Assembly: GCA_050230475.1 (NCBI GenBank)
Contig: JBFLGF010000173.1
Span: forward strand, 1 to 64,000
Direction of reading: 5' to 3'
Length of the DNA stretch: 64,000 nt
Source of the DNA: Ancylonema sp.
Taxonomy: Eukaryota
Positions 338 to 56,106 of this stretch are shown in pieces (position 1 is the stretch's first letter; the number at the start of each line of letters is the position of its first letter). The position numbers and the translations under genes were made by a program. The notes below the pieces were generated by a model that was given only the letters and a program-made list of their open reading frames with translations, did no database searches and had not been told where the DNA came from.

Positions 338-407
338 AGTGTGTTTGGATATTTCAAGTACGTGAAGCCACTGGGTTTTTGCTAATTTCTTCACATTCTC
401 CGTGTAC

Positions 408-16900: not shown

Positions 16901-17210
16901 GGAGGCGGAGGGCGGGGGGGAAGAGGGAGGAGTCGGGGGGCGCCGATAGGGCCGCCTTGAGGGTCTCCAAGGCAAGGGCGAGATGCGTGTGAGGTTCGGG
17001 GAGCAGGTGCGCCAAGCAGTGCTCCTCCACAAACTGACAGAGCTGGGCTTTGTGGGACGTGTCCTTGTCACGCGCAAGATTCTGAAGGGCGTACGTGAGC
17101 AGGGCGGGTCCTGGGTACCCTCTGGCCTCCCCTTCGGAAGAGGCACTAAAATCCCGGAAAACTTTATCCCAATTTGTGGCACCCCCCTTGGCGAGAAAAG
17201 AAATGTCCAT
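13968..17210 (-). CDS. AP5B1: AP-5 complex subunit beta-1, copy 2 (intact); introns 16317-16411 and 15244-15328
   Basis: N-terminal WDKVFRDF...ALQNLAR, WWRGTHLLSICR, YPDLDIRDTA and the C-terminal LPPRYHLLLRLEV...TLVRMRTDHWPCLAHIDDYLEAL typical of plant AP5B1. Confidence 0.85.
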
Positions 17211-18074
17211 TCCCGATGAAAGGGCGATGGTGCAGATGGACGGACAGGATTGATCTCAGAGTTGGTCTCACATGCAACGTCCAAGCTGGAGCTGCTCAAA
17301 AAAAGACGAAATGCGATCCAGTTGCGTCGGCCCAGCGGGATCCATGCGACGGACCATATGGAAGGGTAAGAGGATGAATATGTTTAGAAGAAGCGACCAT
17401 AGCGAAGTCCCAGGGACTAAAGGGGGGATTGAGATGGAGAATTGGCTGACGAACTGACCACGTGGCGACCAAAGAAGTGACTGCAACTGTACAGATGTCC
17501 TCATAACCTGCGGGCTGTCTGCATCGAAGGGTTTTTCTTCATTTCGTTGGTGAATTGAAATGGCATCGTGGCCATGTCGAGCCCGTGTTCAATGCGTGTG
17601 CAGGTTTACTACATGCGTGTGGAGTCAAAAAAAAATAAAAAATCTTAGTTAAAAGCCATCATAGCTGCCCAGTTTTGTGCGGGATCAGTTATAACGTCGG
17701 CCGTTGTCAACACGTGGCAAGTTTGCAGGAGGAAGCCAGCACTTTCGTTCCGAAGATGCGCCGGACTACGCGCGACAATATCCCTCACGTGTGAAAGACT
17801 CGGTCAACATTTTGAGCCGCGACAGAACGGCACTTACGTATGGGCTCACATGGGGCTCAAATGTTTCCAAGCCGAGACTAGGGTGTCCGGAAAGACATCC
17901 GTAGTTGCCGCAAATGCTTCTCGAGTACACCCAACACCAATTATGTAAAATTCGGGTCCCTGCTCTTTGCGTACTCGGAATGTTAGAACAGAAGGCCACG
18001 GCTACTTTTTAACGGAAGAGTGGCACATTTTGAAGAAGTGAAGTGGTGGTGGGGCCCTGATGTGATTTGATGGA

Positions 18075-19817
18075 ATGGTCAGTTTTCAGTGGAGACTGAA
18101 TCAAATGGCTGCCACGTTGAACGTCTATCGAATTGGCGTGAGCCACAGCGATGTTCACAACAGCTATCGCAAGCGTATCTCAGCTCCATCATCCACTGAT
18201 GTCTATCGTCAGTTCTGCCCTATTTCTACGCCCGTAAATAAATTCCACCGGCTCTCTTCATCCGCACAGTCCCGGATTTCAAGACCTTGCTTTACAACCG
18301 TGACTCCACATTCGGACCTCAGTAGATTCAAGCCGGTTCCACGACCCTGTCCACTCCTCATTTGTGTCAGGCGTTCAAGCAGATCAAATGAGGTGGCGAC
18401 AGATGGCAATGTCCAGCAAGGTCCAACTCTGCCCTGTGGTTCGTTTGTTGTGCCGTTTCCCTGCTCCGTCCAGCCACCGATATGTAGTGCAGACACAACC
18501 TTTGGATGCCGTTTGCATAGCACCTACCTTTCAACTCCACGCCCCGAATGCATTGTATCAAATATTTCCTCTGCTCTGAATTCCTGCCGTCTTTCTTGGA
18601 TTGGCTCCAGAGATCTACGAGATCCGACGGAGTGTCGAATCTCTGGCCGCCCGGATCGATCTCATTGATTCCACAGCCGATCTTCCCAAGCAGCAGGCTG
18701 TGGTGGCTGACTTGGAGCGCCAGGTGGCAGCCTCTGATTTCTGGGACGATCCGAGCCGTGCGCAGTCTCAGATGTCCCACCTGACCTCCGCCAAGCAGGT
18801 GACGGACGACGCGCGCACCTTCCTGTACAAGGTGGAGGACGTGCGCACTATTTTGGACCTCACCTCGTCCGAGGCCACCCCGGACACCTCCCTTTTGGCA
18901 GAAGCTATCTCCGTGTTGGCGCAACTGGGGGCGGCGGTGAGGGGATATGAGGTGGCGCAGCTTCTGGGGGGGGAGTACGACGACAAGGGGGCTACGGTTA
19001 CGGTTACGGCCGGGGCAGGGGGTGTGGATGCTCAGGACTGGGCCGAAATGCTGGTCCGCATGTACACCCGCTGGGGTGCCAAAAAGGGATTCAACGTGGA
19101 GGAAGTGGAGAGGACAGACGGAGAGGAGGCGGGCATCAAATCCGCCACGCTGCAGATAGCAGGGGGGCGGTTCGCTTACGGTTACCTGAAGGGGGAGAAG
19201 GGGACCCACCGCCTGGTCCGCCACTCTCCCTTCAACGCCAAGGGTCTGCGTCAGACGTCGTTTGGCGGTGTGGACGTGATGCCTATCCTGGAGGACGAGG
19301 TGGGGGCGGAGGTGGAGGTACCGGAGGAGGATCTGGAGTGGAGTACCATGCGGGCGGGCGGCAAGGGAGGGCAGAATGTGAATAAAGTGGAGACGGCGGT
19401 TCGTGTCACGCACGTCCCAACGGGGATTGCCATCCGCGTGCAGAGTAAGTGGGGCAGAGGTTGGGGGGATGGGGGGGGCGGTATGGATGTGGGTCTTCAG
19501 GGGGGTTGGTGGTGGGGGTGGGTGGACCAGTTTCCCGTTCTCAGTTGCAGACCAAGAAGACTGCCTTGGACATGCTGAAAGCGAAGCTGTACCTCATTGC
19601 CCGAGATCAGCAGGCAGCAAGTGTGAAGGAGATTCGGGGGGATGTGGTAAAGGCGGAGTGGGGGCAGCAAATACGGAATTACGTTTTCCATCCCTACAAA
19701 CTCGTTAAAGATGTGCGGACAGGAGTGGAGACTTCAGACAGTGGGGGGGTGATGGATGGGGACTTGGACCCATTCATTGAGGCGCATCTGAGGCACCAAC
19801 AGAATTCACAGAGCTGA
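18075..19817 (+). CDS. prfB: Peptide chain release factor 2, copy 2 (intron 19445-19530)
   Basis: Same ORFs as copy 1 with GGQ and SPF motifs. Confidence 0.88.
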
Positions 19818-20472
19818 TGGAAAAGTGTGATTGTGTCTAGTACATAAAGTTGTGGGATTCGAGGGTCGACTTTTTCGTTTTGCCGCAAATTTCATACTTC
19901 AAAGAGTGTTACAACCATCATTCTGCTGTTTTTTGATCGATGAAATCGGACACACATTACCCCAGCTGGCACATAGTGAGAGGGAGTTGTCAAGGCACCT
20001 ACACAGTGGTGCAAGTCAACGCGTATCTCCAACTATGTACACTCCACGCGACGAACCTGTAGCTCCCGCCTACTCCATCTCAAGCATCCAAGTTTGACTT
20101 TTGTAACAATAGCGAATATAATTTGTGGTGTTATCGCGTCATAAAATAATGCTCGCTGCTCACCACTCGGTACATTCATGCCCACCAGTTTTCGCACAAT
20201 GAGGCGCTGCTTTATTTTTCCCATCTTCTTAGATGATGTCGACTAATGTCCAAAAATGGTTCACACAATCTATGATTCCTTCTCTTTTGTCACACCACAC
20301 ACACAAGCTGTTAAAAGCATGTGCACACAATTGTGTGTACTTGTTTGCACAGTCTCCCTCAAGTATCTAAGTCGATACAAGTATGTACAAATGTAACCTC
20401 CTTGTACAAAACTATGGGCAGATTTCCAACCAAACAAATATGGTTGGGGCCAGGCCACGTGCCCTCACTGAC

Positions 20473-21680
20473 TCATGCAATTCGAGTTGAAGTGAGAGAC
20501 CGCCTAACTTTCATGTACGGTTGTGGAAGGGTGCCTCCGCGTGCGGTGAGGAAAGTGTACAAGTAGGCCGCTGCCGAGGCACACGTGGTTCCCGCACTCC
20601 CGAATCTGAACCAGGGGGGACGAGCAAGGTAAGCAACGCGGTATTGCTTATGGTCCCTCAGCTTTTCACCCACTCTCTGAGGGTTGGGAAGAAGTTGGGA
20701 GGGGTAGTATGCGACTGACATGAGAAGTGGCATGATGTGCATCGAGTCCTCGCATCCGCATGCTGGCAGTCCCAACGCGGCCCCCAGTAGCGCCAGCTGC
20801 ATGCCCGTGTTCACCTTGCTGATCCACAGAGGCTGCATGAGAGCAGCGCCACCAATCCCAGTCGCAAAAAACTCTGCCCCGCTCTTCCACTGTCCAGACC
20901 CACAGGGAGATAAGACAGGTGTGGTTCCTGGGCAGGTGTGGGAAGTGTAGGCTGCGTCCGTACCTTCCATTGGAGTGCCCTGGCTCTGTGCATCACTGCC
21001 CCCAGGAGCAGCCCCGAGTCACGCCCCAACATGAGCGCCACCAACCACCCTGAGACGAAGAGGAGACGAGGAGAAAGGGAGGGAGTGAGTAGGGGGGGAA
21101 GGTGGGTGAGAGGGTGGGGAGGGGCGGGTGCTTACAGGGCAACAGAGCGGCGTGTAGCATCGCCATGACCACGCAGCCAATGAGCACCTGGTCGGCTAGA
21201 GGGTCGAGATACGATCCCAAAACGGAATTGGTGCCACGCCGTCGTGCAAGGTACCCGGCGAACTGACCATGCCCCCCCCCCGCCACACCGCACCTTCGGA
21301 GCAATACCGTCAAACAACACTCCCCCTGTAGCCTGCCTAGTAGAGTACCCAAACAGACGCCCCCGCGGCCGATATGGCGATGAAGGCAGTGCTGAAATGC
21401 CCCTGGACCACCAGACTGCCCCACCCCACCCAGCACCCCACATCGCCCCCCCGTCAGACCTCGAAATTGCGTTCAAGGGTGGAGAATCTCACAGTGCGAT
21501 TGGAGGGCCGGATAAAAGTCGAGCCATAGAAACCGCATTCGGCCAATTGAAGACCTCATTACGAGTCCAATCGCTGACTGGCCTTGCCTGGAGACTTGGA
21601 CCAGCCGCAGAGAGGGATTCGGGAACGCGTGTGTCGTATGGAGGGCTGATGATCTTCAGACGATTGGGATGGGTTGCAAC
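20473..21680 (-). pseudogene. CLS: Cardiolipin synthase copy 2, 5'-truncated (lacks promoter, start codon and the first ~411 nt of CDS)
   Basis: Matches 7910-9117 of copy 1, then switches to Copia gag at 21681. Confidence 0.8.
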
Positions 21681-24490
21681 AAAATATGGATTGCTGAAGC
21701 GGCTCTACTACGGACATAAAGAGGCACCCGGAATCAAGTGGATCTGGGCAGAGGTTGGTGTGGACGAGCTCGACGACAAGAAAGAGAAAGGAGTGAAGGA
21801 TGCAAAATCGCTAGTGACCAAGGCAAACTATGTAAAGTGGTCAACTCAACAAAATTATTCAAATCGAGGCAGAGGTGGAGGCATCGACAGAGGTGATGGC
21901 AGAGGCGCTCGCAGGGGAGATTACAGTGGAAATCGAGGAGGCAGATTTTATCGTGGTGGTGGAGGAGGGAAAGGTGCAGGAGGAGGCCATTCTTGCTATA
22001 CTTGTGGTCATACTGGTCATTTCAGCAGAGACTATCCGAGAGAGGATGAGACTTGTGATTATTGCGGTGCAATCGGTCGCATTGAATTTACCTGCTTTGA
22101 CAAAAAGAATTAGGCTCCCCGAATGCAGCGCAAGAATCAACAGATAGGTCGAAAATCCGCACATGTGAGCGAGATCGATGAGGGAGGTGATTGTGGACAT
22201 GGTGAAATGGTGGTCGGAGAAATCTGCGAAGGTCGTGTGGGCGAAGGGGATGAGGAGAGGGATTTTTTGTGGGATGATGGATCCAGTCATCATTCAACTG
22301 GACAAGAAGCACATTTCAAAACTCTCGTCGATATTCCTCAAGAGATCGTAATGCATCATCTTGTTGGCAGCGTGCGCATCAAATAGTGGGGGAGAGTTGA
22401 GCTTGAAAGTGAGGGTGAATGCGGTGGCATTACGCTGAGAAATTGTCTATACATTCTAGGCTCAACCTCTTTTGTGGCCAGAAAGCGAGAGAGCAAGGGT
22501 GGGAGTACGATTTCCAAGCTCTAGCAGGTGGCATAATTTCAGTTTACGAAAAAAAACGGCAAGCAAATTTGCACAATTCGAGAGTCAACGACTGGTCGCC
22601 ATACCTTGATATGCACACCAGTTCGTCATGATTGACAAATTGAAGAGGAAGTAGTCGTTGCGGCTGTCGATGTCAAGATTATGCATTCACGTATTGGTCA
22701 CGCAAATGAGCGAGTTCTCATAAATTTTGCAAAAACAGATCTGGTACGTGGCTTGGAAGGAGGAATTTGTGGTGTGCTGCAAAACTGTGAGGGTTGCAAG
22801 CTAGGACAGCGCATGATCGACCTCATCCAAGCACGGAGTTTGGAGTAGGGGAAAAAGTTTGCCTGGGTCGAATTTCGGTGGATTTGGCGGGATCCTTCTA
22901 GCCGGCGTTGCTTGGTGGCGGGATTTGGAACATGGTGATTGTCGATGAGTACAGCCGAAAATCTTGGGTGTAAATTTTGCGATTGAAAAGTGACGCTACT
23001 TCTCGACGAAAGAATGGATCGCAATATGGCAGCGACATAGAGGAAAGGAGGTCAAAAGTCTAAGGTCTGACAGAGGTGGGGAGTTTATCGATGGTGGTTT
23101 TCGATTGTGGATGAGAGGGAAGGGGATAAATCATGAGCCGACACCTTCGTTTACTCCTCACGGCAACGCTATTACTGAGAGAATGAACATAACCTTGCAA
23201 GACAGAGCTCGTTCGATGTTGAATCACATGAAACTTCCTCCATGTTTTTTGGGTTGAAGTCATCTCTCATGCCTCTTATCTTTGAAATCGCTGCCAAGTG
23301 ACAAATCTGCCAAAGACGCGAGAGGAAATGTGTACTCGTAGCACTCTTGGTGTCGGTCCTCTTTGCTCTTATGGTTGCAAAGTTTATGTGCGACTAGAAA
23401 AACGAGACCGACAGGGTAAAATGGCACCTCTGGCATGGATTGGGGTTCTCGTTGGCTAGAATTTTGAGGGTCCCTGTCAAAGGGTATAGGATCTGAAGAC
23501 GAACAAGGTACACAATGTCGGCCATGCTCATGCAGACTTCGACGAATCTGTCGTTGCTGGCTGGTGCGAGGTTAGAATATCGGAAAGAAATGATAAAATT
23601 GTGAAATCGACACTGCAAATGACATGGCATGGCTAGATATGGTGCCAGAAATACTGGCTATCAAATGAACTTGGCTTTCTGTCGATGAAGCGGTTCCCGA
23701 CGCTGTGGGAAATCCTTTGCCACAACTTTAGGCATCCCCTCTTCCTTAGACTGACAAAATTCCACAGCTGGTGAGTAATTCTAGTGGGGGTAAAAGTGAT
23801 CAAGATCTTTTGGAGGTCGGGCCAGAGTGGTACCATGATGAGGCGACATCAGAAAATCCAATGCTGCACTTTGCAGAGGATTAAAAAAAAAAGGCTATTA
23901 ATGTTGCACAAGATGCTGCTCGGAGGTCAGCACGTAAAAACAAAGGTGTTGCAGCAAACATATTTGTTGCAGGTCTTGAGGTTGACTCAAAAAATCGAGA
24001 GAGTGTTCAAGAAGCTCTGAGTAGTCCAGATAAAGAAAAATAGAAAGCAACAATGAATGCAGAGATGGGCAATTTTGAGGAAAATGAGGTCTTTCGTCTC
24101 GTCGATAGGCCAAAAGGCAAAAAAGTGGCCAAGTCCAAATGGGTGTTTCGAGTCAAGAAAAATGCTGATGGGTCTGTTGAAAATGACAAAGCAAAAGTGG
24201 TCGCTAAGGAATTCAGTCAGGTCGAGGGTGTTGATTACGATCATACATTTTCTCCAACAATCAGGTTTGAAAGCATACGTCAGTTGATCGCATTAGGTGC
24301 CTCCAAGGGTCTGCAAATGCATCAAATGGATGTAATGACAACATTTTTGTATGCCCCGCTAGTAGAAAAAGTGTATATGGAGCAGCCAGAGGGCACCTGC
24401 AAACGGTGAGGAAGGAAAAGTGATGCTGCTACTACGTTGTCTGTATGGCCTGAAATAGGCACCTCGTGGCTGGAACCAACATATTGATGA
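21681..24490 (+). mobile_element. Degenerate Copia family-1 internal region (gag C-terminus, protease, integrase, RT N-terminus)
   Basis: Zinc knuckle CYTCGHTGH, protease FLWDDGSSHH, integrase SDRGGEF, and RT KWVFRVKK...QVEGVDYDHTFSP...HQMDVMTTFLYA. Many stops and frameshifts. Confidence 0.9.
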
Positions 24491-27400
24491 TGTGCGAAAA
24501 TCGTGTAAATTTCTGCTATAGTCAGAATTACCGTTACCCTTGCAAAATCGTGACCCTTGCAAGTCGTTGATTGCCAGCCGTTTTGCTGACGTAAAAAATC
24601 GTTACAATACGTTGCACCGTTTCGTGCGAGCTCGGCCATACAATTCACCCTTTGAATTGCCTGCACCCGTTCGAGATTCAGTGAATCGTTTCATTCACGA
24701 AAAGGCTTGATTATCGTAACCAATAGTGAGTGCGCACCCCGCCGCAACCAACTATCCATCATTCTGCACCCCTTGTAGAAATTATATAGCCATTTGCCTT
24801 GCGTTTTTTTTACCAGTAGCTGTCACCTGCTGTGAAGTGTTGTAATCTGCAACGCCTGATTAACCTAAGTGTTATTTCTAGACCTCCCACCACTAAGCGT
24901 TGAGTGCATCTCAGCTTTCGGATTTCGGCGAGTAGTAGCTACGGCAAGCTTCGTTGATAAGTCACATACCGTGCTTGAATCACATTCTTGTGTGGTTAGT
25001 AGGGACTCAACCTACACCAATCTACTCTAAACTGACCAGCGGACGAGCTTCTTTACATCGATTTCTGCAACCTTCGACAAATACGAAACCAGGTTGTTTT
25101 TTTTCCGACCCCGTGACCTGTCACCCTTGACCCTTCGTATATGCATCGTCCGATCACCTCATCCCTGACCTATCTCGAGAACCAAGCAAAGTAAAGCACC
25201 AATCTCACCCTTAGTGAGACACACAAGGTACTTTACCCTGATCTCCTTTCACATTATATGATGGCACCACGTCGATCACCCAGAGTCACAGCCATTGTAG
25301 ACAAGGAAGGACAAAGAAAGGAACGAAATAAAAAGAGTGCGCGAGTCGTTGTCAATGTTAGCACCTCCATGCGTTCGGCAAACCAGAGCTCACCTAGTGA
25401 CAGTGAAGAACAGCAAACCAAGGAACGGTCTCCTTCACCCACTAGAGATCCAGATACTCCGATTTACCAAGATGCTCAGGCAGAACCTGAGGAGTACCCC
25501 ACTCCACACCCTGAAACATTGTTGGAAACCGTTGCTCGAGAAGGAGAAGATTATGGTAGACGACAAGGCTATAGTACCAAAATGCCTGACTCTTTCGTAC
25601 CACATTTTCCTTTGCAACTTGAACCCGTTACTACCAGTTTGGAGCACATGAATGATTCAGATGTGCCACCACCCTTACCCTTGGCTAAAGCTCAGATTCA
25701 ACATGATCGTCTTCATGAAATTTTGATGCAGCAACGAGCCATGGTTCAAGGGACGGAATCAGCACTTCAGGAGGCAGCCGATCTGGTGAACTTCATGCAA
25801 GACCCTGCGAACGCCCGTACCATCAGCCTAGCCTTCCTCAAGGACCCAGCCCGTTTACCCGCTCACCACAACCGGCTAGCGAAGCATTACGGCATCACCA
25901 TGTTGCCTAACCGACGAGGTGTACTTCTCGTAGGCGACGTGAAACCAGTGGAGAATGTGATGGACACTGGTGCCAAAGAAACTATGATTGGTGCCAACCT
26001 CACCAAACTCCTCCGGCTCTCACCAGCTGACCTGCACCCCGGAGCACCATACATCACAGCGTCAAGAAAGAGAGAGCTGAGTTTGGAGAGCACCAAGGAA
26101 AAGATTCCCATCACCATCGGCGAAGGCACCGCTCACCCTTGCACAGTGCATCTTCACCTACATCTCTCACCATCGATGGAGTTCAACATCATCCTCGACA
26201 ACTCTTTTATTTGTCCGATGGGAGGATTCCCTGATTCATGGACCAAGACACACATGTATCGACCAAACTTCCGGACGGGAGGGCATTGTTGGCAGGCATC
26301 CTTATTGCCATCCATGAGACCCACGACACCCCGGCGATTTATATGGCGCGCAAGAAGCAGTTTGTGCATCCTCTTGGCTCCAACCGTCGAGGTCTTCGCA
26401 GCCGGAATCCAACGTCGACAAAATCAGAAGACGAGTGCGTTTTCGACGACGACGATGTCACGGTGGTCCCCACCATCTACCCGACACCCAGTCCTCCGGT
26501 GGATACTCCACCAACTGAGCCCATGGAGTTGACCATCCGTGCACCTTTGGTCACCACCGTCACCATTACTCCCATGTCACCACCTCCTGGCGTGGGAATT
26601 GACTTCATCACCCCGGTGTCATCCTCAACACCTCGTTTCTCGACTCTGACTTCACCTATCTCGGAGTACAATGGACTACCTCGCTTTACCCTTAGTCGAG
26701 AGTTTGATTCGTATTTTCGGGACACACCACAGAAACCACGCTCATCGACAAGTACACATTGCACGAAAAATTGTACCACCTTAGTTAAACACGGTCATTC
26801 ACTAAGGAATTTGAGTGCACGTCGTTCCCTTCGCTCACCCGTGTTCCCAACATCACCATTACATGCGGCGGTAGCACCCTCACAATCAAAGGGTAAGTTG
26901 TCACCCGAATGCATATTCTCGGAAGAAAACATCGATAACACGGTAATGGCACCACTTGCAAAAATTGCTGCATCACCCACTGCATCAATGCCACCGTCTT
27001 CCACACCCGTTACCACCACACCATTGAAAGTCGGAGGTACACTTTTACCACCCGTCGATGCATCGCAACCTAGGCCAGCACCAATGTACATGTACTTATC
27101 TGCTAACGTCGATGTAGGTTCGGTACCTCGAGACACGGTGTGACCTCGCTCTGAGGAGGGTCCATTGCAAGCACCCTTGTCATCCAAGAACCCTAGCAAA
27201 GGAAAATAGCAAAACCATCGACAGGAGCAACTTCAACTTGACCTGCTGACCCTCATGGATTTGGCTGACCACCCCAACATAGATCGATACGTCGACACCA
27301 TGCTACAGTGGTTCAACCCCGACACTCAACTCACCCCGATAGAGCAACTCTACATTATCGTGACCAGTATATTTCATGAACCTCACTACATGACCCTGCC

Positions 27401-28372
27401 CTCGATCGAAGCCATCCGCACCCAGGCTAACGCGGATCGAGTAAAGCGGGAGAAGGCGGATAAAGACAAAGTCACCGCTAAACTCCGTGCATTACTCAAG
27501 GAGGAGTGGGAAGCAGAGTGTGAAGACGACCGCATCCAACCTACCGAGGCGCCTGCATCCATGGACGAGGCAACGGTGGATGACGGTGATGCAAAGTTGC
27601 GAGCAGGCCGTCAACGAGAAATCGACAACCTGGCCGAAGATCTGCAACACGCCAACACCACCATCTTCAACCAAGCTGCAGCATTGCGGGCGAAGGCGGA
27701 TGCCATCGCCGTCTACAAGGCGGAGAAGAAGAAGGGCAAGGAGAAGGCTGACCCCATCGTGAAGCTGGAACTTTCGGACTCCGAATCCGACAAGAACATG
27801 GAGAATATTCCACCTGCGGGATATCACCATCGAACCACGGTCACCATCGGCGATTGGAAACTAGTCCGGAGTCCACGCGCGGAGTTGTAGCGTCCTGTAC
27901 ATCGACAGAGGACCACTCCCCCAGCCCACACTCCGCCGACACCTCAGCCTATCCCGGTGTACCACACCGTTCCCTTGTGTCCCCCATCATCGACACTCCC
28001 CAAGGCCCAACCTTCAGTGCCCCCTCTTATCCCCATCCCTTCCGCACAGCACAATGCAGCCCAATTTGCTCAAGACCTGATAGCAGTCAACGCTATGGCG
28101 ACGGCTGCACAACGCCATTTGGCACTCCGTGACTACGACAACTTGCGTGATCCCCGTGATGGCGACGACATCGATAGGCATCGGGCACGCTATCGTCAAA
28201 AGGTCCCGTTTTGGAACCCCAGGGATCAACATCTCACCATTCCTGGTTACCCTTACCTCATCACCCACAGGGTATTGCCTGCCACATTTTCACTCCAGTG
28301 GTTAGCCAAGAAAACTTGGAGAATCTACACACCCCGTAGCGTGAATTCTGTCGCCACCATCCGCGAGGAGCA
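24491..28372 (+). mobile_element. Gypsy-like element: probable LTR (~24491-25057) plus gag/protease ORF 25258-26532 and further degenerate ORFs
   Basis: 24520-25057 is homologous to 51800-52332. Aspartic protease VMDTGAKETMIG...CPMGGFPDSW is homologous to 53145-53700. The element ends at an N gap. Confidence 0.7.
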
Positions 28373-28373
28373 N
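28373..28373. other. Assembly gap / ambiguous base
   Basis: Single N with unrelated element types on each side. Confidence 0.9.
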
Positions 28374-28375
28374 AT

Positions 28376-28530
28376 GTCCCCCCAACAGTAGTGACCCACC
28401 CTGTGACCGACTTCTCAATCATACTACAGCTCTTCCAACTACCATCACAATACCCCCTGATCTCTAGCCGCTTCTGCCTCACGTAGCACAGTCCGTGATC
28501 CACCATCCCTTTAGATATCTGAACAGTTGG
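28376..28530 (-). mobile_element. Copia RT/RNase H junction fragment
   Basis: RYLKGMVDHGLCY...EIRGYCDGSW...KSVTGWVTTVGG. Confidence 0.75.
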
Positions 28531-29383: not shown

Positions 29384-31340
29384 TTCCGTTTCGATCTCTG
29401 TGTTCCAGTTGCACATAAACTTTGCAACCATTAGAACTAAGGTGGTTGACATTTGGAGTGCTACCCGTCCACATTTCTTCAGGTATCTTTGGCAGATTCG
29501 TCACATGGCTGCGATTTTGGAGGTAAGAAGCGTGAGAAATGGCTTCAACCCAAAGATCATGATGAATTTTCATGTGAGGTAGCATCGAACGAGCCTTGTC
29601 TTGCCCTGCCCTATTTTACAAAGTCTTGTTCAGTCTCTTTGTGATGGCATTTGCCTGAGGGGTAAAAGGAGGAGTAGGCTCGTGATTGATGCCTTCGCCT
29701 CGGAGCCACAATGCAAAATCACCATCGATAAATTCACCTCCCCTGTCAGACCGCATATTTTTTACCACTTTTCCACTTTGTCGCTGCCAAATCGCAATCC
29801 GTTTTTTCAGTCGAGGAGTTGCGTCACTTTTCAAGCGCAAAATTTCCACCCAAGATTTTCGACTATACTCATCGACAACCGCCATATTCCAGATCCCCCC
29901 CCCAAGCGACGCCGGTTGGAAGGGTCTCGCCAAATCCACCAACATTCTTCCGAGGCAAACTTTTTCCCCTGTTTCAAGCTCTCTACTCGGATGAGGTCGA
30001 TCATGCGCTTTCCTTAGCTTGCAACCCTCATAGTTTTGCAGTGCACCAAAAATTCCACCTTCAAGGCCACGCATTATATCTCCTTTCGCCATATTTATGA
30101 GGACCCTCTCATTTGCGTGACCGAAACGAGAATGCACGATGTTGACATCGACAGCTGCAACGATTGCTTCCCCTTCGATTTGTCGATCATGGCGGAGTGG
30201 TGTGCAGATCAAGGTATGGCAACCAGTCTTTAATTCTCGAATTGTAGAGATTTGCTTGCCATCTTTCCTGTAGACTGGAATTATGCCACCTGCTAGACCT
30301 TGATTTTTTTTCTCCCACCCTTGCTCTCTCGCCTTTTGGCCACTGACTAAACCCACTCTCATCCTTGGAATGTATATTCGATTTCTTAAAGTAATGCCTC
30401 CACATTCTCTCCAGTCTCAACTATCGCCCACTACTTGATGCGCACACTGCCAACAAGATGATGCATGAACATTTCTTAAGGAATGTCGACGAGAGTCTTG
30501 AAATCTTCTTTTTGTCCAATAGAATGGTGACTAGATCCATCGTCCCACATAAAAGCTCTCTCCTTATCGCCTTCACCATCAAGTCCCTCACAGATTTCTC
30601 CGACTACCATTTCACCATGTCCACTGTCTCCACTCTCATCGATTTTGCTCACGTGCAAATATTCATCCAGCCTGCTGGCCTTCGCGCTCCATTCGAGGAG
30701 CCAGATTCTTTTTTCCGAACAGTTAAATTGAATGTGACCGAGGGCTCCATAATACTCGCAGCTATCATCTTTTCTTGGACAGTCCCTACTGAAATGACTT
30801 GTTATACCACAAGTGTAGGTGGCATGACCGCCACTTGCTCCTCTCCCTCCACCACCACCTCAATCACTTCTGCCTCCTCGATTTTCGATGTAATCACCTC
30901 TGCCAACACCTCTGCCTCCACGACTATCACCACCACTACCTCTCCCTTCATTTGAAAATTTCTGACGTGCATCCCGCTTTGTATAATTTGCTTCAGCTAC
31001 CAACGCTTCAACATCTCTTTTGCCTTTCTCCTTGTTATCATCTAGCTCATCGAATCCCATTTGTGCCCACACCCAAGTGATTCAAGGAGCCTTTGCTTGC
31101 CCATAGTACAACTTTTTGAGCATGCCGTACTTTGTCCTTGACATTCCCGCGAACAATGTCATGACCTAATCCTCCTTACTGACATCATACTACTAATGCT
31201 TGCATGCTCTGATGATCGATATAAATTCTTCTTGATGTCTCAAACCAACATATTTTCATCGATCTTGAAAAAACTTAGTCTCTAATTTCCAAACTGCTTC
31301 AACTCAGGAGTCACTTTGTCATATTCATGACGTGCCAGAT
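29384..31340 (-). mobile_element. Degenerate Copia family-1 gag-protease-integrase
   Basis: VMTLFAGMSRTKYG, FMWDDGSSHH, HSRFGHANER, VVDEYSRKSW, MRSDRGGEF and PFTPQANA. Confidence 0.9.
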
Positions 31341-35180: not shown

Positions 35181-37017
35181 TTAACGCCACAGCTTTGCCA
35201 CTTCCTTCCCAACCCCTGTCCGGCCAGGTGTCCCCACGGCACGCTGCCACGTGGCCCCCATCGTGTGGAGGGCAGCATCCACAAACTCCACCAGAGAAGT
35301 GGGGGTACCGTGCTTCAGCCGCACAAAAAAAAGGCCCTCACTACCCCTCCCCCCAACCGCGCCACCCCCCCCCCCTCCCGCTGCCCCCTCTTGCCACCCG
35401 ACTTCAGGTCCCCAGGCTCCCTCCCTCCAACTCGTCTGTGTCCCCTCCTCACCATTACGATACAGAGGAAGATTCCCGAACTCACCGGACGTGACTGCCA
35501 TCATCCATTTCGTCAACAGCTCGTTGACCACTTGTGGCGTTTCGTGGTGTGGGCAGTGCCCCGACTCCAAGATTTCGTAATACACGGCTCTTGGCACGGC
35601 TCGTTTGAGTCTCTGCCCCCACAGCGGCACCACCCATGGGTCGTCTCGGCCGTAGACCAAGCAGACAGGGAGGGAAGCAGTAGAAATCCTGAAACAACTC
35701 CCCATACACATCGTCACCCACTCAAAACTGGGATTGGGGGGTTGGGGGTTGAGGGTCGGTACCTTGCCAGATTTTGGTCAAACGAGTATTCGCTTTTGGG
35801 GGCGAAAATGATGGACGCAAACGCAGCAGCAGCTGCTGGATGGTCTGTGGGCGATTTGATTTGGTGTACCAGACCATCATCCACGGCGGACTTGTGAAAG
35901 TACACCAACTGCAGCAAACGGCGGATGGTAGAAGGATGGCGGAGGGCATCCCACCTGCACCAGATAACACCTCCCCATCACAACCTGGCCGTATGTTCCC
36001 CTCACCCTGTGGTAGGTCTCCCCCTTACCACCTCCGTGCGACCCCCCTTGCAAGCCCCGGCACTGGCAGCTGCCCCCCCCATAGCCCCAACCGCGCTGCC
36101 CTCGGGCTCATCTTGGGGTTGGGGGTGAAGGCCCAGAAAGGGGTCGCATTCATAAGTACCAAACTCATTACCAGCGAAGGCTCACTGGCCGCCACGTAGG
36201 CTCCGATGTACCCCCCCAACGAGGTCCCACAGATGTGAGCGGGACGCTGGATGACGTGGCGAAGGAAGTCCACCACCTGATCCTTCCAGACGTCCACAGA
36301 ATACACCAGACCCTCCGCCCAGGGTTCGGGGGCGGGCCCAAACCCCCACTCCCACGGAGTGACGGTGTTCTGTGGGGATGGCGGGCCGTGGAGGGGGGCG
36401 GGGTCGTGCGTGGGCCACGATTCTCCTTGTCCAATCAGATCCATCGCCCACACTTGGTGCGTGGCGCTGAGGGCGGACAGCTGGCGGTGGAAGTGGAAAG
36501 AGCCAACTCCGAAGCCAGGGAGCAGGAGTATGGCAGGGAGGGAGCTGGGGCAGGGGCGGAGGGAAAGGCCGAATTCGATTCAAGGAGCGGTAGGAGTCGG
36601 TGGTAAGAGGGTGGAAGTGGTTTGGTAGTTTGGTCACCTGTTCCCCTCGCCCGCCACCTCATAGTGCACCCGCCACTTCTCTTTCCAATCCCAGAAGCCG
36701 CTTCGGATAGCCGCATCGCCCTCCGCCGCTGCTTCCGTACCACCACTTACAGCAGCACGGGTTCGTCTCCACGTGCCACCTGGAGGATCATTTTCTGTGC
36801 AAGGAAACGCACCTGCCAAGTGGTACCTAAACAGTGCGCTAGCTGGACTTTGATGGCAAGATGTGGAGATATTTGGCAGAGCTCCATGGTAGCGGGGCTG
36901 AAAAAATCTTGGAGGGTGGGATTGATAGAGGCGTGTCTGCTTCGTAGGGAGGTTGGAAGGGTGAATCTGGTGCGTGATGTATACTCGTTCACTTCCTAGG
37001 TTAACTCCGACCGTCAT
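35181..37017 (-). CDS. PPH: Pheophytinase (alpha/beta hydrolase); introns 36545-36637, 35955-36028, 35689-35762; start at 37017, or at 36887 with a short extra intron
   Basis: LLPGFGVGSFHF, WAMDLIGQG, GxSLGG nucleophile elbow, PPH-type NATPFW motif, YGRDDPWV and GHCPH. GT-AG introns restore the frame. Confidence 0.85.
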
Positions 37018-44231: not shown

Positions 44232-44850
44232 TAGAGTGGGGGTAACCCTGAAATTATTTTCAGGGTTAAGTCGTAACCCTGAAATAACCCCTTTTAGCCC
44301 TGATTAACCCTAATTAACCCTAATTAACCCTAAATATCCTTAATAATCCCGATAACCCTGCTTAACCCTGATTAACCCTAGGGTTATTAACCCTGAAATA
44401 CCTGTCAAAATTAATATGACGGAACTGAAAACAGGTTATGAATTGAAACAGGTTATTTATTTGAACAGGTTATTAATTCACCCGAAATCGGGCGCAAGAT
44501 CGGATGGAAGATTTTTTATAAATTTAGACAGGTATTAATTGGTGCAATATAATTATATTGCGTACCCGGAAGTACCCGTCCCGCCGGCAGCGGCGGCGGC
44601 AAAATTAGCCCTTCAATAACCCCGATTAACCCTTTTTTACCCCGAATAACCCCGATTAACCCCGATTAACCCCGATTAACCCTGACTAACCCTGATTAGC
44701 CCTGATTACCCCAGGGTTATCGGGTTAAATCAGGGCTAACCAGTAACCTCGAAGTCTTAACCCTGTTTTGGGGAGGAGGGTTAAATCAGGCTCTTAACCT
44801 CGAGATTAAGGGATAAGGGTTATCAGGGTCAAGGGTTAACCCCCACTCTA
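44232..44850. mobile_element. hAT-type MITE with telomere-like TAACCC subterminal arrays
   Basis: TIR TAGAGTGGGGGT(T)AACCCT. Flanks TTCATGTC / ATCATGTC match 7 of 8. Many ATTAACCC units. Confidence 0.7.
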
Positions 44851-45303: not shown

Positions 45304-46924
45304 ATGAACAGAAAAACAAGCTCTAGTACAAAAGTATCGAAAGCGGAGTGCGGGGGATTGCATGAAAATGCCTTTCTTAACTTGCAAACCGACCACCTGG
45401 TTCGAAGTCTGCAGCTTTTGGATACCTGGTCTGTCTTCGCGTTCGCTCGAACTTGCAAGCAGAATCGTGATGTGACTTTCTCAGACGCTGTCTGGAAAGT
45501 TTTTTGTTACAGAGAATGGGGGGCTCACTGCTGTGATCAGATTCCGCCAGGTGTGAAACGAAGGGCAGGATGGTTGGGACTCTGGGGTGACATGGCAACT
45601 ATGGAACCTCATGCCGACGTGGCATGAGGTTCGACGATTGGGCCCAAGACCCAATGTGAGGGCGAGCCACGCCATGAGTTCTATGCACGGCAGTGTGTGT
45701 ATCTATGGAGGTGGCTGCGATGGAGGTATGGTGGGGGCGTGCATGTGGTCATGTGTGGGTTGCTGCCACGTGGTTCTCACTCCCGCCTCCCGTTGGCAGG
45801 GCGCCATCTGTCGGACATGTGGATCACGCATTCCAGTCCTTTACTCGTATCCGAGGGCCCTGCCTCTGGGATCCAGTGGCAGCAGGCCGCTTTGCAGCAA
45901 CCTAGTGGTCGGTTCCAGCTCAGCTGCACGCTTATGGGCGAGCGGGTCGTGGTGTTCGGCGGAATTGACGAGAATGGAAAACGTGAGTGCCCACTGCTTC
46001 CTGCTCCCTGCTCCCTGCCCCCTGCCCTCACCCCATCTCCTCTTTGTGGCCCCAGGATCCGACGAGACTTGGGGGCTCAATTGTGCTCATCTGGGTGAAG
46101 GTGGTGAGGGCAGTTGGCAGCGAATTGATGCGGGGAACGCACCGTCCGCAAGGGGGGCACACGCAGCCGCATGGGGGGGGGGTTCCAAAATGATCGTCTT
46201 TGGGGGCATCAATCAAGAAGCAGAGCGACAGAATGACACCTGGATGCTAGATCTAGACACGCAATCCCTGACATGGCGCCAGGTGGCAGTAGGGTCCCCC
46301 CTCCCTGAGGCACGCTGAGGCTACTCGCTGACGTGGGTGGGGGAGGGGCGAGTGGTGCTGTTTGGAGGAAGGGGGGCGAACCTGAATGTGCTTCAAGACA
46401 CTTGGATCATGGAACTGCACGACCACAAGGGGGGGGAGCCCAGTGAGCCCAGTGGGCGCTGGGTTTGTTTGGATAGCGGTACCCTCCCCTGCCCTGGTCC
46501 CCGTGCAGGCCACTCTGCCACCCCAATCCTGGGCGGGCGCGTGGTGGTGGTGGGGGGGGAGGATGAGAAACGTGTCCGCCAAGGCGACACTTGGCTGCTG
46601 GATCCACGGGGGGCGCCAAGTGGAGCAAGGAGGAAGAAGGGGCGGCGAAGGGGAGAGGGTTGTCAAGTGGTAGCGGAGGATGGAGTGGCAGTCGTACCGG
46701 GGGGGGGGGAGGGGGAGGTGCAACTGTCGTTGCCCCCCCTTTGGAGGCCGTTGGTTTGTGAGGGGGCTCTGCCACCCAGGGCGTATCATGGAGCGTGTGG
46801 GGGGGGGGGTGGATGTGCTCTGATGCTGTGGGGTGGAATGGTGGATGGGGAGAGGAAGGGGCACAGCGCAGCGGGATTAACCTTTGACGACCACTTCTAT
46901 GTGTTGCGATTGGCGAGGACGTGA
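45304..46924 (+). pseudogene. F-box/Kelch-repeat protein with a frameshift (~45607) and in-frame TGA (46316-46318); introns 45726-45799 and 45983-46055
   Basis: F-box-like VFAFARTCK...SDAVWKVFCYREWG. Kelch repeats RASHAM...YGGGCDGGRHLSDMW, RGAHA...VFGGI and RAGHSAT...VVGG. The lesions could be sequencing errors. Confidence 0.75.
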
Positions 46925-49725: not shown

Positions 49726-51479
49726 TTAGAAAGTAAAGTTTTTTTAATTGTCGATCCACTTGAAAAATACAAATTTTGGTAATTGTCGATTTTAGTCGTT
49801 ATATCGAACACTGTCGTCATATGAGTTTCGATTTGATAATTTTGTTATACTTAGTGAATCTAGAAAAGTCGGTGTACCATTTTTTAGATTTTAATTTGGA
49901 GTATTTTGTCGTATCGACGAGTTAGTAGATTCCCAGTGCGCGCCGAGCTTTATTTCAGTCAGCCAGCCTGGCTAATGAACTGCCGCACGTGTAAAATTTA
50001 GAACTCTAGAATAGACAGTCACGATTAGCTGTCTAGTCGATATTTTTTGTCAGCCTTAGATCTAGATAAGATCTAGATCTAAATTATCTAGATTATCTAG
50101 ATAAGATCATTGTGTTGCAATCTCTCTGAATTCGTGTATTCCGAAATCGTCTACTATCGTTATCAAGTGTGCCGTTTTGCCTTTGATATTCTCTCTGAAT
50201 TTTTGCAAACTTCACGTCGCTCCATTCAACCGTAAGTTCTGCGAAATTGCTCGTTTGTTTCTGCGTGCTGTCGCATCTCAAGTAATTAAAAAGTCGTGTG
50301 CCGTTATGCAAAAGTTCTCATGATTTCTGTCACACTAGACTCGTAATAAAATTTTCGCCAGTATGGTGTGCTGCGCTCGTATCCGGAACCAGTATTTGTA
50401 TTGTAATGGCGATTGGAGCTCCAGGGTGCATGGAATCGCTTCAACATTGCTCGATTGTCGATTATCGCACAATAGCAGAGATGGTAAATCTAAAAATGCT
50501 TTCTTTCGAAAAAAAAATTCCCGCCTTACTAAATGTAACAATAGCTTACTTCTGTGATTTGAACAGCTGGAAATTATTACGATTTGCTCCTGTAATAGAT
50601 TCTTAGAAGCCAGCCTCCGAGACTGGCTTTTGCGCTGTGGTTTTTGCGCTGAAGTCAGTCGTCGTTAAGAGCTCTTATTCTATTTTTGCTGCACAAAAAA
50701 AATCATTTTTGTCATAGTAGATTCGTGATGAAATTTTCGTCAGTTTGGTATGCTGCGCTAGTATTCAAAACTAGTATTTTTTCTGTAATGGCGATGAGGG
50801 CTGTAGGGTGCATGGAAATCGCTTGGATAGCGCTCGATTTTTGTCAACCGCACAGTCTCTCAATCGGTTCTCAGTAATTTAATACTGCGATACTTAATCC
50901 TGTCTTAATTAACACTATCGGGACTGTAGAAAGATATTAAGTGCGACACGTTATTAAGTCACACGTCAGATTTTACCCGGGATCCGTAATAACCTGTAAA
51001 AACTCGAAATTGCCTACAATTTAATCGTATGTACCTAAGATGTACACGCCCGTCAAAATCTCCGCTGGGCGGCGCCCGCAGGCGGTGCCACTCGCGGGCG
51101 AAACGCGAACGGGAATGTCCACGTGGCGTGTATATATAGAGCTTTTTTAGGGTTCTGGTGTATTCAGTTTTTAAAGCTCCATATTGATCGGAATAAAAAA
51201 ATAAAGAGTGCTAATAGCAACTACATAGTTTCATCTACATGAAACATTCTTTTTTGTAAGATTATCATAAAACGTCTAGAAGCTTTGCTTTTTTAAACTT
51301 GCTTTCTTGAAATTCCGAAATTCAGCGTGCCCAGAACGGGCGGCTGGGCGGAGGCAAGCGAAAAAATCCCCGCCCGCGGGCAGGTATATCTATGGATGGA
51401 CTGGATGCGCACTAACATGTTTATGTTTTTTGGTTACAAATGGATTAAATTAGACTCAAGATAATATCTATAATACTGT

Positions 51480-54400
51480 GCGTGCGAAAAGCCGCGTCAA
51501 TTGTACTAAAGCAAAGAGTCGCATTTCTGAACTGCCAGCTTCCGCTGTCGGTTTACGCTGTCTAAATCTCAACATGCTCTTTTGCAAATCGTTATCCTGT
51601 TGCAATATCTGTGAATTCGTGTATTCTGGAATCGTTTAATCTATCGCTATCAAGTGTGTCGTTTCGCTTTTAATATTCCTTGTAATTCTCTGCAAGCTTC
51701 GCGTCGCTTCATTACTCGTTTGCTTGTACGTGTTGTCGCATCTTAAGTAACTGAAAAGCCGTGTGCCGTTTTGCATACGCATTGTGTGAAATTATGCCGT
51801 AGTCAGAATGATCGTTACCCTTGCAATATCGTGACCTTTGCAAGTTGTTGATTTCGAGCCGTTTTGCAGGCGTCAGAAATCGTTACAAGTTCGCTGCACC
51901 GTTTCGTGCAAGCTGAGCCAAATAATTCACCCTTCGAATTGTCTGCACCCGTTACTAAATTCGTGATTCGTTTATTCACCGCAACGCTTGATTTATCGTG
52001 TCCATAATCGTGTGCGTATTTTGAAGCATCTAATCATCAATCATTCTGCAATCCTTGTATAAATTCTTTAGTTATTTACCTTGAATCCCATCACCAGTAG
52101 CTGTCGCGTATTGTGAAGTGATGTGTTAAGCGATTCTCGATTAACCTCGATATTGTTTTACTAGACCTCCCATTACTTTGCGTTGGGTTTTTCTCAGCTT
52201 TCGGTGAGTAGTAGCTACGGCAAACTTCGTTGATAAGTCACATACAGCGCTTGAATTACATTATTGTAATGTCATTGGGGACTCAACCTACACCAACTAC
52301 TCTAAACTGACCAGCGGAAGAGCTTCTTTACATCGAGGTCTCCAAGGAAAATTTTACAGAACCCGATTAAATTTGTCCTGATAACCCTTCTCATTGATTG
52401 TTTATCGTATACCATTGCCTCTACAATAACCCAAGGGACACCTATTCAGAAACCCGAGATGGAAACCTACCATCATCATTTCTGGACAACCAAGGCTAGT
52501 GAATCTGAGTATGCTCTGAGTGACATACAATATGAGACAAAACTCTTAAAGCTTGCTACTAATATTTCTGACGACTACAGGATCTACAAATTCGGTCCGC
52601 TACAACTCATGCAGAAGAAAACTAAGGACGAGTTTCGACAACTCCCTCCAGACCTCAAGCGACGCCGCGACGAACATCTGGCGGTCATTCGAGTTCATCG
52701 ACAACGAGAGTGGAATATAATCCAACCATATCATTTCACCATAGACTTGGCGAAAGGTGAGGTAACCTGGAAAATCGGGTGTTTCACCAATTCTAGCGAC
52801 AACTTTTAGCACCTCCAGCAGCACAACCAATCCCGGCATACACCAATACGTCGGTTACGAGTACTACTCAGTACCTGCAAATGACAAAGGAAGAACACCA
52901 AAGGTACGTGCAAGAAGCAGCATATGCCATGGGTTTCGGTATTTTCAACTCACTAATGAGCCAAGAAAAAGTAAAACCACGAGACGAAGCATCGACAGTC
53001 CTCATTAAAAAGGCTGTCACATTCGCACATGTAGTTGCGAGCTATGCACCAAGTCCCATCATCCTCTCACCACCCAAAGGAGAGGAGAAATGTGTGGTTT
53101 AATTTCAACCAAGTCATACATGGCAAGATTGTCCACGAGATCACATGACCAAAGAAGAGTGGAAAAAACTAAAAGCTGGCATTCGAGTGGTTTTGCAGGG
53201 CAGAGTACCAGCAATTCACTCCACGGTCAAACCTGAAAATAGTAAACCAGTCGGAGAGCCAGACGCACGTATTACCACAAATTGGACGGTGCCTGTGATT
53301 GAGAAATACAAACAAATCTTCTTCTTCGAAGGAGTCGAGCCAACGGGAGATATAGTGCTCGATAGTGGGTCAGGAGATTGCATGATCAGCGTCACCATGG
53401 CAAAACAACTCGGCATCACCAAGGCAGATTTAGATATTGGCGAGGAATATCTCGCCTCTTCGGGACAAGCCAACACATCATTGGGTGTAACCAAACGATA
53501 TTATGAGATCACCATTGGACAAGGCAAGTTCAAATCCACACTTCCGGTCCGTCTCACCTTGTCACCCTCAGACAAGTACTCGATTCTTTTTGGCAATAAT
53601 TGCATTAATCCCATTGGCGGGATCGTCGATAGTTGGGGACATAGATTCCACAATCGAGTGGACTTGAAAGTCAAAGGTGACAGAATGGTGTTCGTTCCTA
53701 TCATCACTCATGGGCTCAACGCAACTAAAAAGTTCAACCTCGATACCTTTGAGGTGGCCTACATGAACCAGGGAATTTCAGCAGACACCACATACACCAC
53801 CATGGACACCTTTCTTAAGAACGAAACCATGTTCGCCACAAACGAGGATGAAGATATTCTTGCAAATTTCGAATTCATGGTGTCACAAGAGGGATATGAG
53901 AAATGTTTATCTCGGCAGGTTTATCGCAGAAAAAGGACCTATCGATTTTATTTTTGCAAGGTGGGAGTGCCAAATGGTCAGCAAAGCAGGAAACTAGCAG
54001 GGATATACGGACGAACAATTCCCGTACTTCTTCGATCTGATCCGCTTCATTAACCCACCTGATCAAAGTCCAGCCTTACCCACCCATCTTCGTATTGGAG
54101 AACTCTTACCCTTTTGACGACTTTCCGAAAGGAATCCAAGACACGACAGTCCTCGTCAAGTCATTTCTCGGATACCCAGCAGTTTTCGATGCATGTAGTG
54201 TTGGCACTAACGCTCACAGATTACGATGCCTCTCGACGAATTTCATACCACCTCATATCCTAGAATTGGAAATTCCCGCGGTTCCATTGAAATCCTTGGC
54301 CAAAATTCTGGACAAGAACCATCGACCCACAAGTGTCACCACCAATGACACACCACCCCGCGCGTCGGGGGGGGGGCACCTATCATACCCCCGAGCAGTA

Positions 54401-54830
54401 TCATACATTGCTTTATGACACCAAGGAGCACGAATTCTACGAAAACCACGAATCAGCAGTCACCGTGGATTTTGCTCAACAACAATATCTGAACGGTGCC
54501 ATTCCTTTCACCAAGGAATTGCTTGCAGCCACGGAAGGTAATTTATCGGAGATTGAGAACGACCTTGTTTATCGTCCCGAAGAATTACCACCAACCACAG
54601 CAGAGACAAAGTTTCAATGGAAGATCGGTGACCATCTCACTAGAAAAGGCAGAAGTTTTAGCATTGCTTGAATCCAATCGATATTACCTCGCATTTAGTC
54701 TTGAAGAATTGGGAACTTCTAAAAATACACCTATGGAGTTACCCCTCAACACCACTGGTTCTATTTTCTAAGGATCTCACAAGCTCAGTCAGACAGAATG
54801 GGACTTCGTGGAATCCAATTGTAAACAAAC
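51480..54830 (+). mobile_element. Gypsy-like retrotransposon: probable LTR (~51480-52332), gag, protease, DNMT3-like methyltransferase (~53910-54330), start of RT; degenerate and truncated by a MITE
   Basis: Protease VLDSGSGDCMIS. MTase EKGPIDFIFARWECQMVSKAG, IFVLENS and FDACSVGTNAHRLR. RT lead-in LAFSLEELG...HKLSQTEWDFV. Confidence 0.8.
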
Positions 54831-54831
54831 T

Positions 54832-56106
54832 TCATGGCGAGTTTCTGCAGAAAAAAATTATTTTTCCGATATTTTTCGTGCCAAATAACCCCTCAAAAAT
54901 ACGTTCAAGTGAAAAAAAACCAGAAATCCTCCGGTTCCGAACCGCGGCCACTTTTGTCGGAACCGGTTCCATCTAAGATCCGGTTCGGAAACGGTTCGGA
55001 GTTCGTGCAACTATGCTTAATACTCCCTACTCATACTCCATCACTACCTACTCTTCACCACTCCGGTATGATAGTTTGTCTACACGGCCGTCATTTGGAG
55101 CCAAAACATCCTCCGCCTCTTTCACCGGAGGGTTCCACCCATAGTTGCACGAACTCCGAACCGTTTCCGAACCAGATCTTAGATCGAACCGGTTCAGAAA
55201 AAATTGGCCGCGGTTCGGAACCGCAGGATTTAGGGAATTTTCACTTAAACGTCATTCTGAGGGGTTGTATGGCACGAAATAAATCGGGAAATAGTTTTTT
55301 TTGGTGTAACTCGTCATGCTCTTTGCAAAACAAATATTGAACAAATGATATCTATTGTAAAATATCTCAAAACGATTTACCGCATGAGTAAGTATTGTAT
55401 TGTTTGGTGCATTTGTATGTTTTGCTCGCTTCTTTGTAAACTGTGTTTCTATTTATATACAAGTAGTTACATGAAATAGTCATATCTTTTTATGATCATC
55501 CTATGCTCATCTCTGTTCCATAATTTTTTCCTTATTCCGATTTCCGTATTATACTTCCATGTGAAAAAAATTCGAGAAGATGTTTTTACTCGTAATTCAA
55601 TTGCAGTTGACATATGCTTCAACCTTCCATGTATTTCTTTTTCAAATCGTGCTCTCAAAGTTCTATCACTAGAGCAAGAAGCTCTAACACTCTCAAAGCT
55701 CTATATTGACTTCATTATTATACTCTTCTCCTATACCTTCCACATCCCTTGCTTCTTTAAAGCCGGATGTGTGTGCTAGAGTGGAAGGTCGGGTGCTGTT
55801 TTCGGCCAAGGAAATCGCACCACGTCATGGCATGACGCGAGCGAAAGCAAATCAAAAATTTCAATGGCCGCGCCATACTGTCCCGATGTAACATTTAACA
55901 ATTTTTGCGTATTTAAGTGATGTGAAGTCACCAACATGAAGATGTACAACGTTATATTTTCTCTGCGTACATTATATGGGAGGGAAAAAATGTTGCACCG
56001 CGGGAAGGAGCTAAACCCTAAAAATCACAACGTTTGTCTGGTTCGGAAACTGTTCCATCTCGGAACCGGTTCCCCAAAAAAAAATCTGCCGGTTCGTGGA
56101 ACTATG
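54832..56106. mobile_element. Two adjacent CATAGTT-type MITEs (GAACCGG motif) forming a ~180-bp inverted repeat (54832-55015 / 55140-55320)
   Basis: ...GTGCAACTATG at 55015, CATAGTTGCAC at 55140 and ...GGAACTATG at 56106. Confidence 0.65.

Follow-up and report, generated by a model that had tools for sequence, protein, structure and literature searches.

Within the 64,000-nucleotide stretch of DNA analysed here (the window) we identified what is likely a dead, internally deleted and 3'-truncated member of a multi-copy Ty3/Gypsy-type retrotransposon family, whose polyprotein carries a DNMT3-like C5 cytosine methyltransferase between the protease and the lead-in to the reverse transcriptase (RT), and whose intact members would methylate their own cDNA. 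Confidence is very high for the domain order, the homology of the pieces, the DNMT3-like fold of a relative, the conservation of catalytic residues among relatives and the lesions of the window copy.

Anatomy of the window copy

The features of the element are collected in Table 1. Its leader is found repeated within the window: 51598-51775 is 73% identical to 50113-50310, and 51781-52345 shares 78% identity with 24500-25070, which forms the leader of a related element at 24500-28391 (+) with a homologous protease (30%, E 3e-17). The frames behind the protease of this second element showed no methyltransferase or RT match, and it is perhaps non-autonomous. For the gag region of the window copy no match was obtained in Pfam, in the ESM Atlas or by tblastn using the proteins collected as relatives as queries. 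The protease was recognised by Pfam Asp_protease_2 (E 4.7e-4) and matched in tblastn by P0049 (E 5e-10) and P0031 (E 3e-7), both of which are protease-DNMT polyproteins. A weak match of 53796-53918 to the protease of relatives (E 5e-4) was treated as chance.

An earlier note on this DNA had described methyltransferase motifs downstream of a D-S-G protease and ahead of an RT lead-in. The protease is confirmed by Pfam and tblastn, and all motif strings quoted in that note are present, between 53929 and 54226 and in two frames. EKGPIDF (53929), ECQ (53965-53973) and a stop codon (53995) share one frame; beyond a frameshift near 54054, the ENS of motif VI (54098-54106) and the RLR of motif VIII (54218-54226) lie in the next. 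The copy itself therefore retains the C5 methyltransferase motifs IV (Cys), VI (Glu-Asn) and VIII (Arg-x-Arg). The RT lead-in at 54618-54828 spans two further frames, with a frameshift near 54640 and a stop at 54769, and its segment 54643-54828 resembles the stretch directly ahead of RVT_1 in P0044, P0045, P0047 and P0057 (35-40% identity, E 1e-7 to 1e-9). Judged by the protease match and this lead-in, an aspartic protease precedes RT in the window copy, as in Ty3/Gypsy elements. The RT catalytic core, RNase H, integrase and 3' repeat of the element are absent from the window; because there is no RT core, the placement before RT holds for the lead-in and otherwise rests on the relatives. The RT-RNaseH-integrase order with a DDE integrase, not part of the window copy, which ends at 54832, is present in P0045, a relative 37-42% identical over the common parts. 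The truncated end adjoins a MITE-like element whose arms are 85% complementary and which many contigs carry with unlike interiors.

Table 1. Features of the retrotransposon copy and of the adjoining element (positions in the window)
Feature	Position	Strand	Basis or remark
5' leader / probable terminal repeat	51598..52345	+	Repeat identities; exact left end undefined
Probable gag region, split over several frames	52306..53350	+	Position only
Retroviral-type aspartic protease, D-S-G at 53361-53369	53217..53714	+	Pfam Asp_protease_2 and tblastn
Junction, motifs I-III removed	53895..53905	+	Spacing compared with relatives; ends of contig alignments
DNMT3-like methyltransferase, motif IV piece	53908..54054	+	PF00145; profile of relatives
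DNMT3-like methyltransferase, motifs VI and VIII, start of target-recognition region	54053..54364	+	Profile of relatives; identity to P0004
Junction, motifs IX-X removed	54360..54368	+	Spacing compared with relatives; starts of contig alignments
Linker and RT lead-in, element end	54368..54832	+	Match to stretch ahead of RVT_1 in relatives
MITE-like inverted-repeat element, not part of the retrotransposon	54833..55318	.	Arms 54833-55015 and 55140-55318

Identity of the methyltransferase domain

The PF00145 search that had been proposed as a check gave a mixed outcome. The motif IV piece matched at E 0.014 with 15.3 bits, below the cut-off of 22, the motif VI-VIII piece had no Pfam match, and part of the relatives do match. 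When the VI-VIII piece was used as query in a full HMMER search, 37 proteins were returned at E up to 0.001; PF00145 was found in 12 of the 37 at E up to 0.01 and above the cut-off in 7. Two of the 37, P0018 and P0036, are long and repetitive and lack the domain, and they were excluded from all counts of relatives. With a profile as query, 21 more relatives were found among longer proteins, 15 of them with PF00145. Word-seeded searches among longer proteins using the protease and the VI-VIII piece had returned nothing, which is weak evidence and was overturned by the full HMMER and profile searches. In the ESM Atlas all 30 matches of the VI-VIII piece were DNA_methylase clusters, the best (0.92, 128 shared features) being a distant match, and a PDB search with this piece alone gave no real match.

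A profile of 21 relatives, built without the closest relative, scored 41.9 bits on the motif IV piece at 53908-54054 (profile positions 92-138 of 382) and 86.2 bits on 54053-54364 (positions 138-244), the latter value being partly circular as the relatives were collected with the VI-VIII piece. The reversed window gave at most 0.9 bits. The motif IV piece, protease and RT lead-in never served as queries for collecting these relatives. The best relative, P0004, is a 153-aa fragment 74-78% identical to the VI-VIII piece and reads through motifs IV, VI and VIII without interruption; the two frames of the window copy are therefore one domain. Collinear matches to single relatives were obtained for P0047 (motif IV, VI-VIII, RT lead-in) and for P0049 and P0031 (each to protease, motif IV and VI-VIII).

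Phylogenies of the methyltransferase and RT had also been called for. In a FastTree domain tree of relatives only, computed from 42 of 57 sequences over 249 columns (short sequences omitted, spans including some flank), the protease-DNMT-RT proteins form a group that includes the VI-VIII piece and P0004 (support 0.999). The RT tree (30 sequences, one outgroup) clusters the RNaseH-DNMT-integrase proteins (0.85) and does not unite the protease-DNMT-RT proteins in one clade, but is too thin to order events.

The class of the enzyme was assigned on the relatives. When the PDB was searched with a profile of 22 relatives, DNMT3A/B/C ranked first (8e-21 to 4e-15; DNMT3A 8e-21, DNMT3B 8e-19), followed by DRM2 (1e-12), M.HhaI (2e-11) and DNMT2 (5e-8). 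In an AlphaFold model of P0042 the methyltransferase part mostly reached pLDDT values of 80-95, and all 33 Foldseek matches listed for this model were DNMT3A/B/C. By profile and fold the domain is thus closest to DNMT3A/B, with its motifs unpermuted. Collinear relatives, PDB profile search and fold search are in good agreement with the original proposal of a Gypsy-like element in which a DNMT3-type domain separates protease and RT.

Catalytic residues were counted by alignment column in 56 relatives, which are 26-77% identical to each other. The motif IV Cys is kept in all 29 relatives covering the site, the Glu and Asn of motif VI in 52 of 52, the first and second Arg of motif VIII in 52 of 56 and 55 of 55, respectively, and the Gly of motif X in 28 of 30. 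The residue ahead of the catalytic Cys is variable (P 13, E 10, Q 4, S 1; n=28), Pro being replaced in 15 of the 28. ECQ in place of PCQ was correctly read in the earlier note; since Glu occupies this site in 10 of 28 relatives, it is a natural variant and not decay.

Lesions, decay and family

The copy had been called degenerate, and the two stops, the two frameshifts and two missing stretches bear this out. Only profile positions 92-244 of 382 are spanned; motifs I (position 20), IX (296) and X (320) are missing. Motif I, which had not been seen before, is indeed absent, and that observation has to be extended to motifs IX-X. From the protease Asp to motif IV the window copy measures 202 aa compared with 314-360 aa in five relatives, so that about 110-155 aa are missing, and from motif VIII to the RT lead-in 160 aa compared with 269-294 aa in five relatives, a loss of about 110-135 aa. 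The window copy cannot work because both SAM-binding motifs (I and X) are absent; these motifs are present in the long relatives, and judged on sequence the family, unlike this copy, likely is a functional C5 methyltransferase.

Contigs from two runs (X1 and X2) of one sample, which may be the window's own source and are thus not independent of it, were aligned to the region. Across 53780-54860, 392 (X1) and 219 (X2) contigs align, and only 45 and 12 of them are at least 99% alike, which points to a multi-copy family whose members have diverged. At both stops the majority of contigs depart from the window sequence, as do several at the two frameshifts; 8 (X1) and 7 (X2) continue past 54825. 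At the first junction contig alignments break off at 53900-53902, and the contigs carry on with letters that do not align; at the second, at least 5 contigs align only from 54366-54368 onwards and have unaligned letters ahead of this point, and in one contig 633 letters correspond to 255 of the window (378 more). From these lengths and the relatives we infer that the extra letters encode motifs I-III and IX-X. The lesions look private to the window copy, since other contigs of the same sample differ there.

Among the 40 best-supported of 228 rows, private changes show no preference for a codon position (7/6/8 within the methyltransferase) and are biased towards C>T/G>A (17 vs 5, p 0.008). This is best read as neutral decay after insertion, the pattern that a silenced copy would be expected to show. 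No significant preference for CG/CHG context was seen among these C>T/G>A changes (9 of 17 vs 34% expected, p 0.09). CpG observed/expected ratios are 0.83-0.97 in the element and 0.51-0.77 in four host genes; the element shows no CpG depletion and therefore no footprint of CG self-methylation.

Relatives and domain layouts

In five of the 21 long relatives (P0044, P0045, P0047, P0048 and P0057) the domain lies ahead of RT in the same frame, in five others it follows the protease region with no RT in frame, and in 11 it stands after RNase H and/or directly ahead of integrase. P0045 (1946 aa) has the Gypsy order protease-DNA_methylase-RVT_1-RNaseH-integrase-PHD, and a C-terminal PHD finger on Pol was found in eight of the 21. 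The full-length relatives nearest to the window copy share only 35-42% identity with it, and none of those retrieved is from its own family; full-length relatives read protease-DNMT-RT-RNaseH-integrase-PHD.

By group, in the Gypsy polyproteins P0026, P0050-P0056 and P0058-P0061 the DNMT3-like domain stands behind RNase H and/or immediately ahead of integrase, and most of them have a PHD finger at the C terminus. P0041-P0043, P0046, P0064, P0066, P0069, P0073 and P0076 are (Gag-)protease-DNMT frames that end right behind motif X, with RT in another frame or absent. Nearly all relatives are metagenome proteins; P0033 comes from the prasinophyte Cymbomonas tetramitiformis, and the domain family therefore extends outside streptophytes. 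Viral contigs searched with P0004 contained no relative, and metagenome contigs searched with P0045 gave two loci with ordinary Gypsy RT pieces, in which no methyltransferase was seen. In the literature covered, which excluded subscription journals and bioRxiv supplements, no paper was found on the family of the window copy or on the RNaseH-DNMT3-integrase layout.

Host and other features of the window

An AP5B1 gene and a gene for an organellar-type RF2, both in the window, mark the host as eukaryotic. Judging by the relatives and the gene content, the host probably belongs to the green lineage; a scan of prokaryote genomes with RF2 gave 14 loci at 38-45% and was uninformative for host placement. 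Both genes, together with a CDP-alcohol phosphatidyltransferase, lie in a near-identical tandem duplication (1-9000 and 12562-21500, spacing 12.56 kb), which is either a recent duplication or an uncollapsed haplotype. Further host genes are intron-poor and GC-rich: an alpha/beta hydrolase at 35181-36579 (-), putatively pheophytinase-like, and a Kelch-repeat protein at 45557-46924 (+). Arrays of a 10-base, TAACCC-containing, telomere-like repeat occupy 44275-44736. Two inverted, decayed Copia-like copies (gag_pre-integrase, rve) were located at 21679-23416 and 29386-31135. A second methyltransferase fragment of the same kind lies at 32749-32300 (-); it comprises motif IX (32452), motif X (32371) and the target-recognition region, aligns to profile positions 251-348 (44.5 bits; hhalign probability 97.7), and has no recognised protease or RT around it.

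Proposed role and alternatives

In intact members the domain lies within Pol between linkers, so that the protease would cut it free and it would enter the particle together with RT; joint packaging is suggested because domain and RT belong to one polyprotein. Protease release and packaging of Pol parts with RT are established Gypsy biology. The cDNA would be the first double-stranded substrate of the packaged methyltransferase, and the new copy would arrive already marked like host DNA. We lean towards catalytic activity in intact members despite the Glu in place of Pro ahead of the Cys. That cDNA is the target, with new copies pre-marked like host DNA, we take as the likeliest role, albeit tentatively and with slightly less than even confidence. 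Self-methylation of cDNA is also a published hypothesis (PMC5890265).

The same anatomy would serve a domain retained for binding to DNA, RNA or chromatin, jointly with the PHD finger on the integrase, which steers integration, or one that acts once integration has occurred by methylating host genes or the target site. Such a role would fit the PC motif, which in 15 of 28 relatives has another residue in place of Pro, the element's lack of CpG depletion, the PHD finger at the Pol end in eight of 21 long relatives and the ORF of some relatives ending directly behind the domain. It would also fit the Klebsormidium nitens domain, which according to the accessible text gave no methylation in yeast, a result called inconclusive by its authors; DNMT3B also failed there (PMC5890265). 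Pure binding, however, would not need the catalytic Cys, Glu-Asn and Arg, which are near invariant at 26-77% identity, and the SymbioDIRS-Dnmt3 domains are described in the same text as methylating CG de novo (PMC5890265); overall we consider a binding or targeting role the main rival, if less likely than self-methylation.

Both gaps could also be family traits if a non-autonomous or degenerate lineage had multiplied with a domain reduced to motifs IV-VIII as a passenger. No full-length family member was seen among the retrieved sequences, the closest relative, P0004, being itself a fragment, and the related element at 24500-28391 has leader and protease in common with the window copy and no methyltransferase or RT match. 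The same-sample contigs that stop aligning at both junctions, one with 378 extra letters at the second, speak against this, as does P0004, which continues past the second junction with a conserved P-T-I-V-S-Y stretch, and we regard such a lineage as quite improbable. Hardly any weight is given to a chance juxtaposition, be it a host DNMT3 pseudogene or bacterial methyltransferase fragment inside a decayed Gypsy element or a chimeric assembly. Pieces in different frames and a Pfam match below cut-off would fit this, but in ten of the 21 long relatives a single open frame joins the domain to a protease ahead of it or to RT behind it, contigs cover it as densely as the protease, and its best structural relatives are DNMT3 and not bacterial enzymes; P0044, P0045 and P0047 in the main refute it.

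A transposon with the very enzyme that hosts use for transposon silencing raises the question of whether it serves cDNA camouflage, integration steering or self-limitation. In the available part of the 2018 paper no activity was shown for the Gypsy case (PMC5890265). The many intact relatives, which vary naturally in where the domain sits and in the residue beside the catalytic Cys, represent test material. The window copy, being dead, adds a further host and family and not a new mechanism. The more interesting part is the wider picture gained from the relatives, namely three layouts, a PHD finger, a variable catalytic loop and a reach beyond streptophytes, which was not found in the literature searched. 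With about even confidence, we propose that DNMT3-carrying, PHD-finger Gypsy elements would form an old, green-lineage-wide group and would not be a peculiarity of Klebsormidium. In this group a single active methyltransferase, whose catalytic loop is the non-canonical E/Q-C-Q, would occupy one of three sites: the protease-RT interval, the RNase H-integrase interval or the end of a Gag-protease frame. If true, transposons carried and exchanged plant de novo methylation machinery over very long time.

Comparison with known systems

The catalytic domain of mammalian DNMT3A/3B (PDB 6w89, 6u8p) is the best profile and fold match and has the motif order I-IV-VI-VIII-IX-X in common with the domain described here. 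It differs in that identity is only 17-20%, the relatives are without PWWP or ADD, and motif IV often reads E-C-Q or Q-C-Q compared with P-C-N. EpiLTRs of Cymbomonas and Euglena (10.64898/2026.05.21.726589) are likewise Ty3/Gypsy elements that carry a chromatin-reader domain alongside a cytosine methyltransferase. In the accessible part of that preprint, however, their DNMT is sister to DNMT4 and accompanied by DAM and a chromodomain, and its authors separate EpiLTRs from streptophyte Gypsy-DNMT3 elements. The relatives found here are DNMT3-like with PHD and showed no DAM or chromodomain match.

SymbioDIRS-Dnmt3 of Symbiodinium, as far as described in the available text (PMC5890265), resembles our elements in carrying a DNMT3 domain in Pol, in occurring with alternative domain orders (two) and in lacking CpG depletion, and its de novo CG methylation was shown in yeast. 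It belongs to the DIRS class with a tyrosine recombinase, in contrast to the aspartic protease and DDE integrase of the relatives here.

The nearest precedent is KnitGypsy-Dnmt3. De Mendoza et al. 2018 (PMC5890265) report, in the text accessible to us, that Gypsy elements of K. nitens carry in Pol a DNMT3 that evolves under purifying selection, and propose cDNA methylation; Sarre et al. 2025 (PMC12344493) and the preprint 10.64898/2026.05.21.726589, each available in part, cite such elements for streptophytes. The likeness to KnitGypsy-Dnmt3 is one of description, as no K. nitens protein was among the matches and its domain order appears only in Fig. 4c of the paper (PMC5890265). The available text gives it DIRS-like split repeats (A-coding-B-A-B), for which the corresponding 3' end of the window element is missing, and has no mention of the PHD finger present in the relatives found here (PMC5890265). 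Common to both are an intronless, non-rearranged DNMT3-related domain in a Gypsy Pol frame and a (probably) green-lineage host. Judged by its sequence, and within what that text describes, the window copy is a new family of the kind already published as KnitGypsy-Dnmt3 (PMC5890265).
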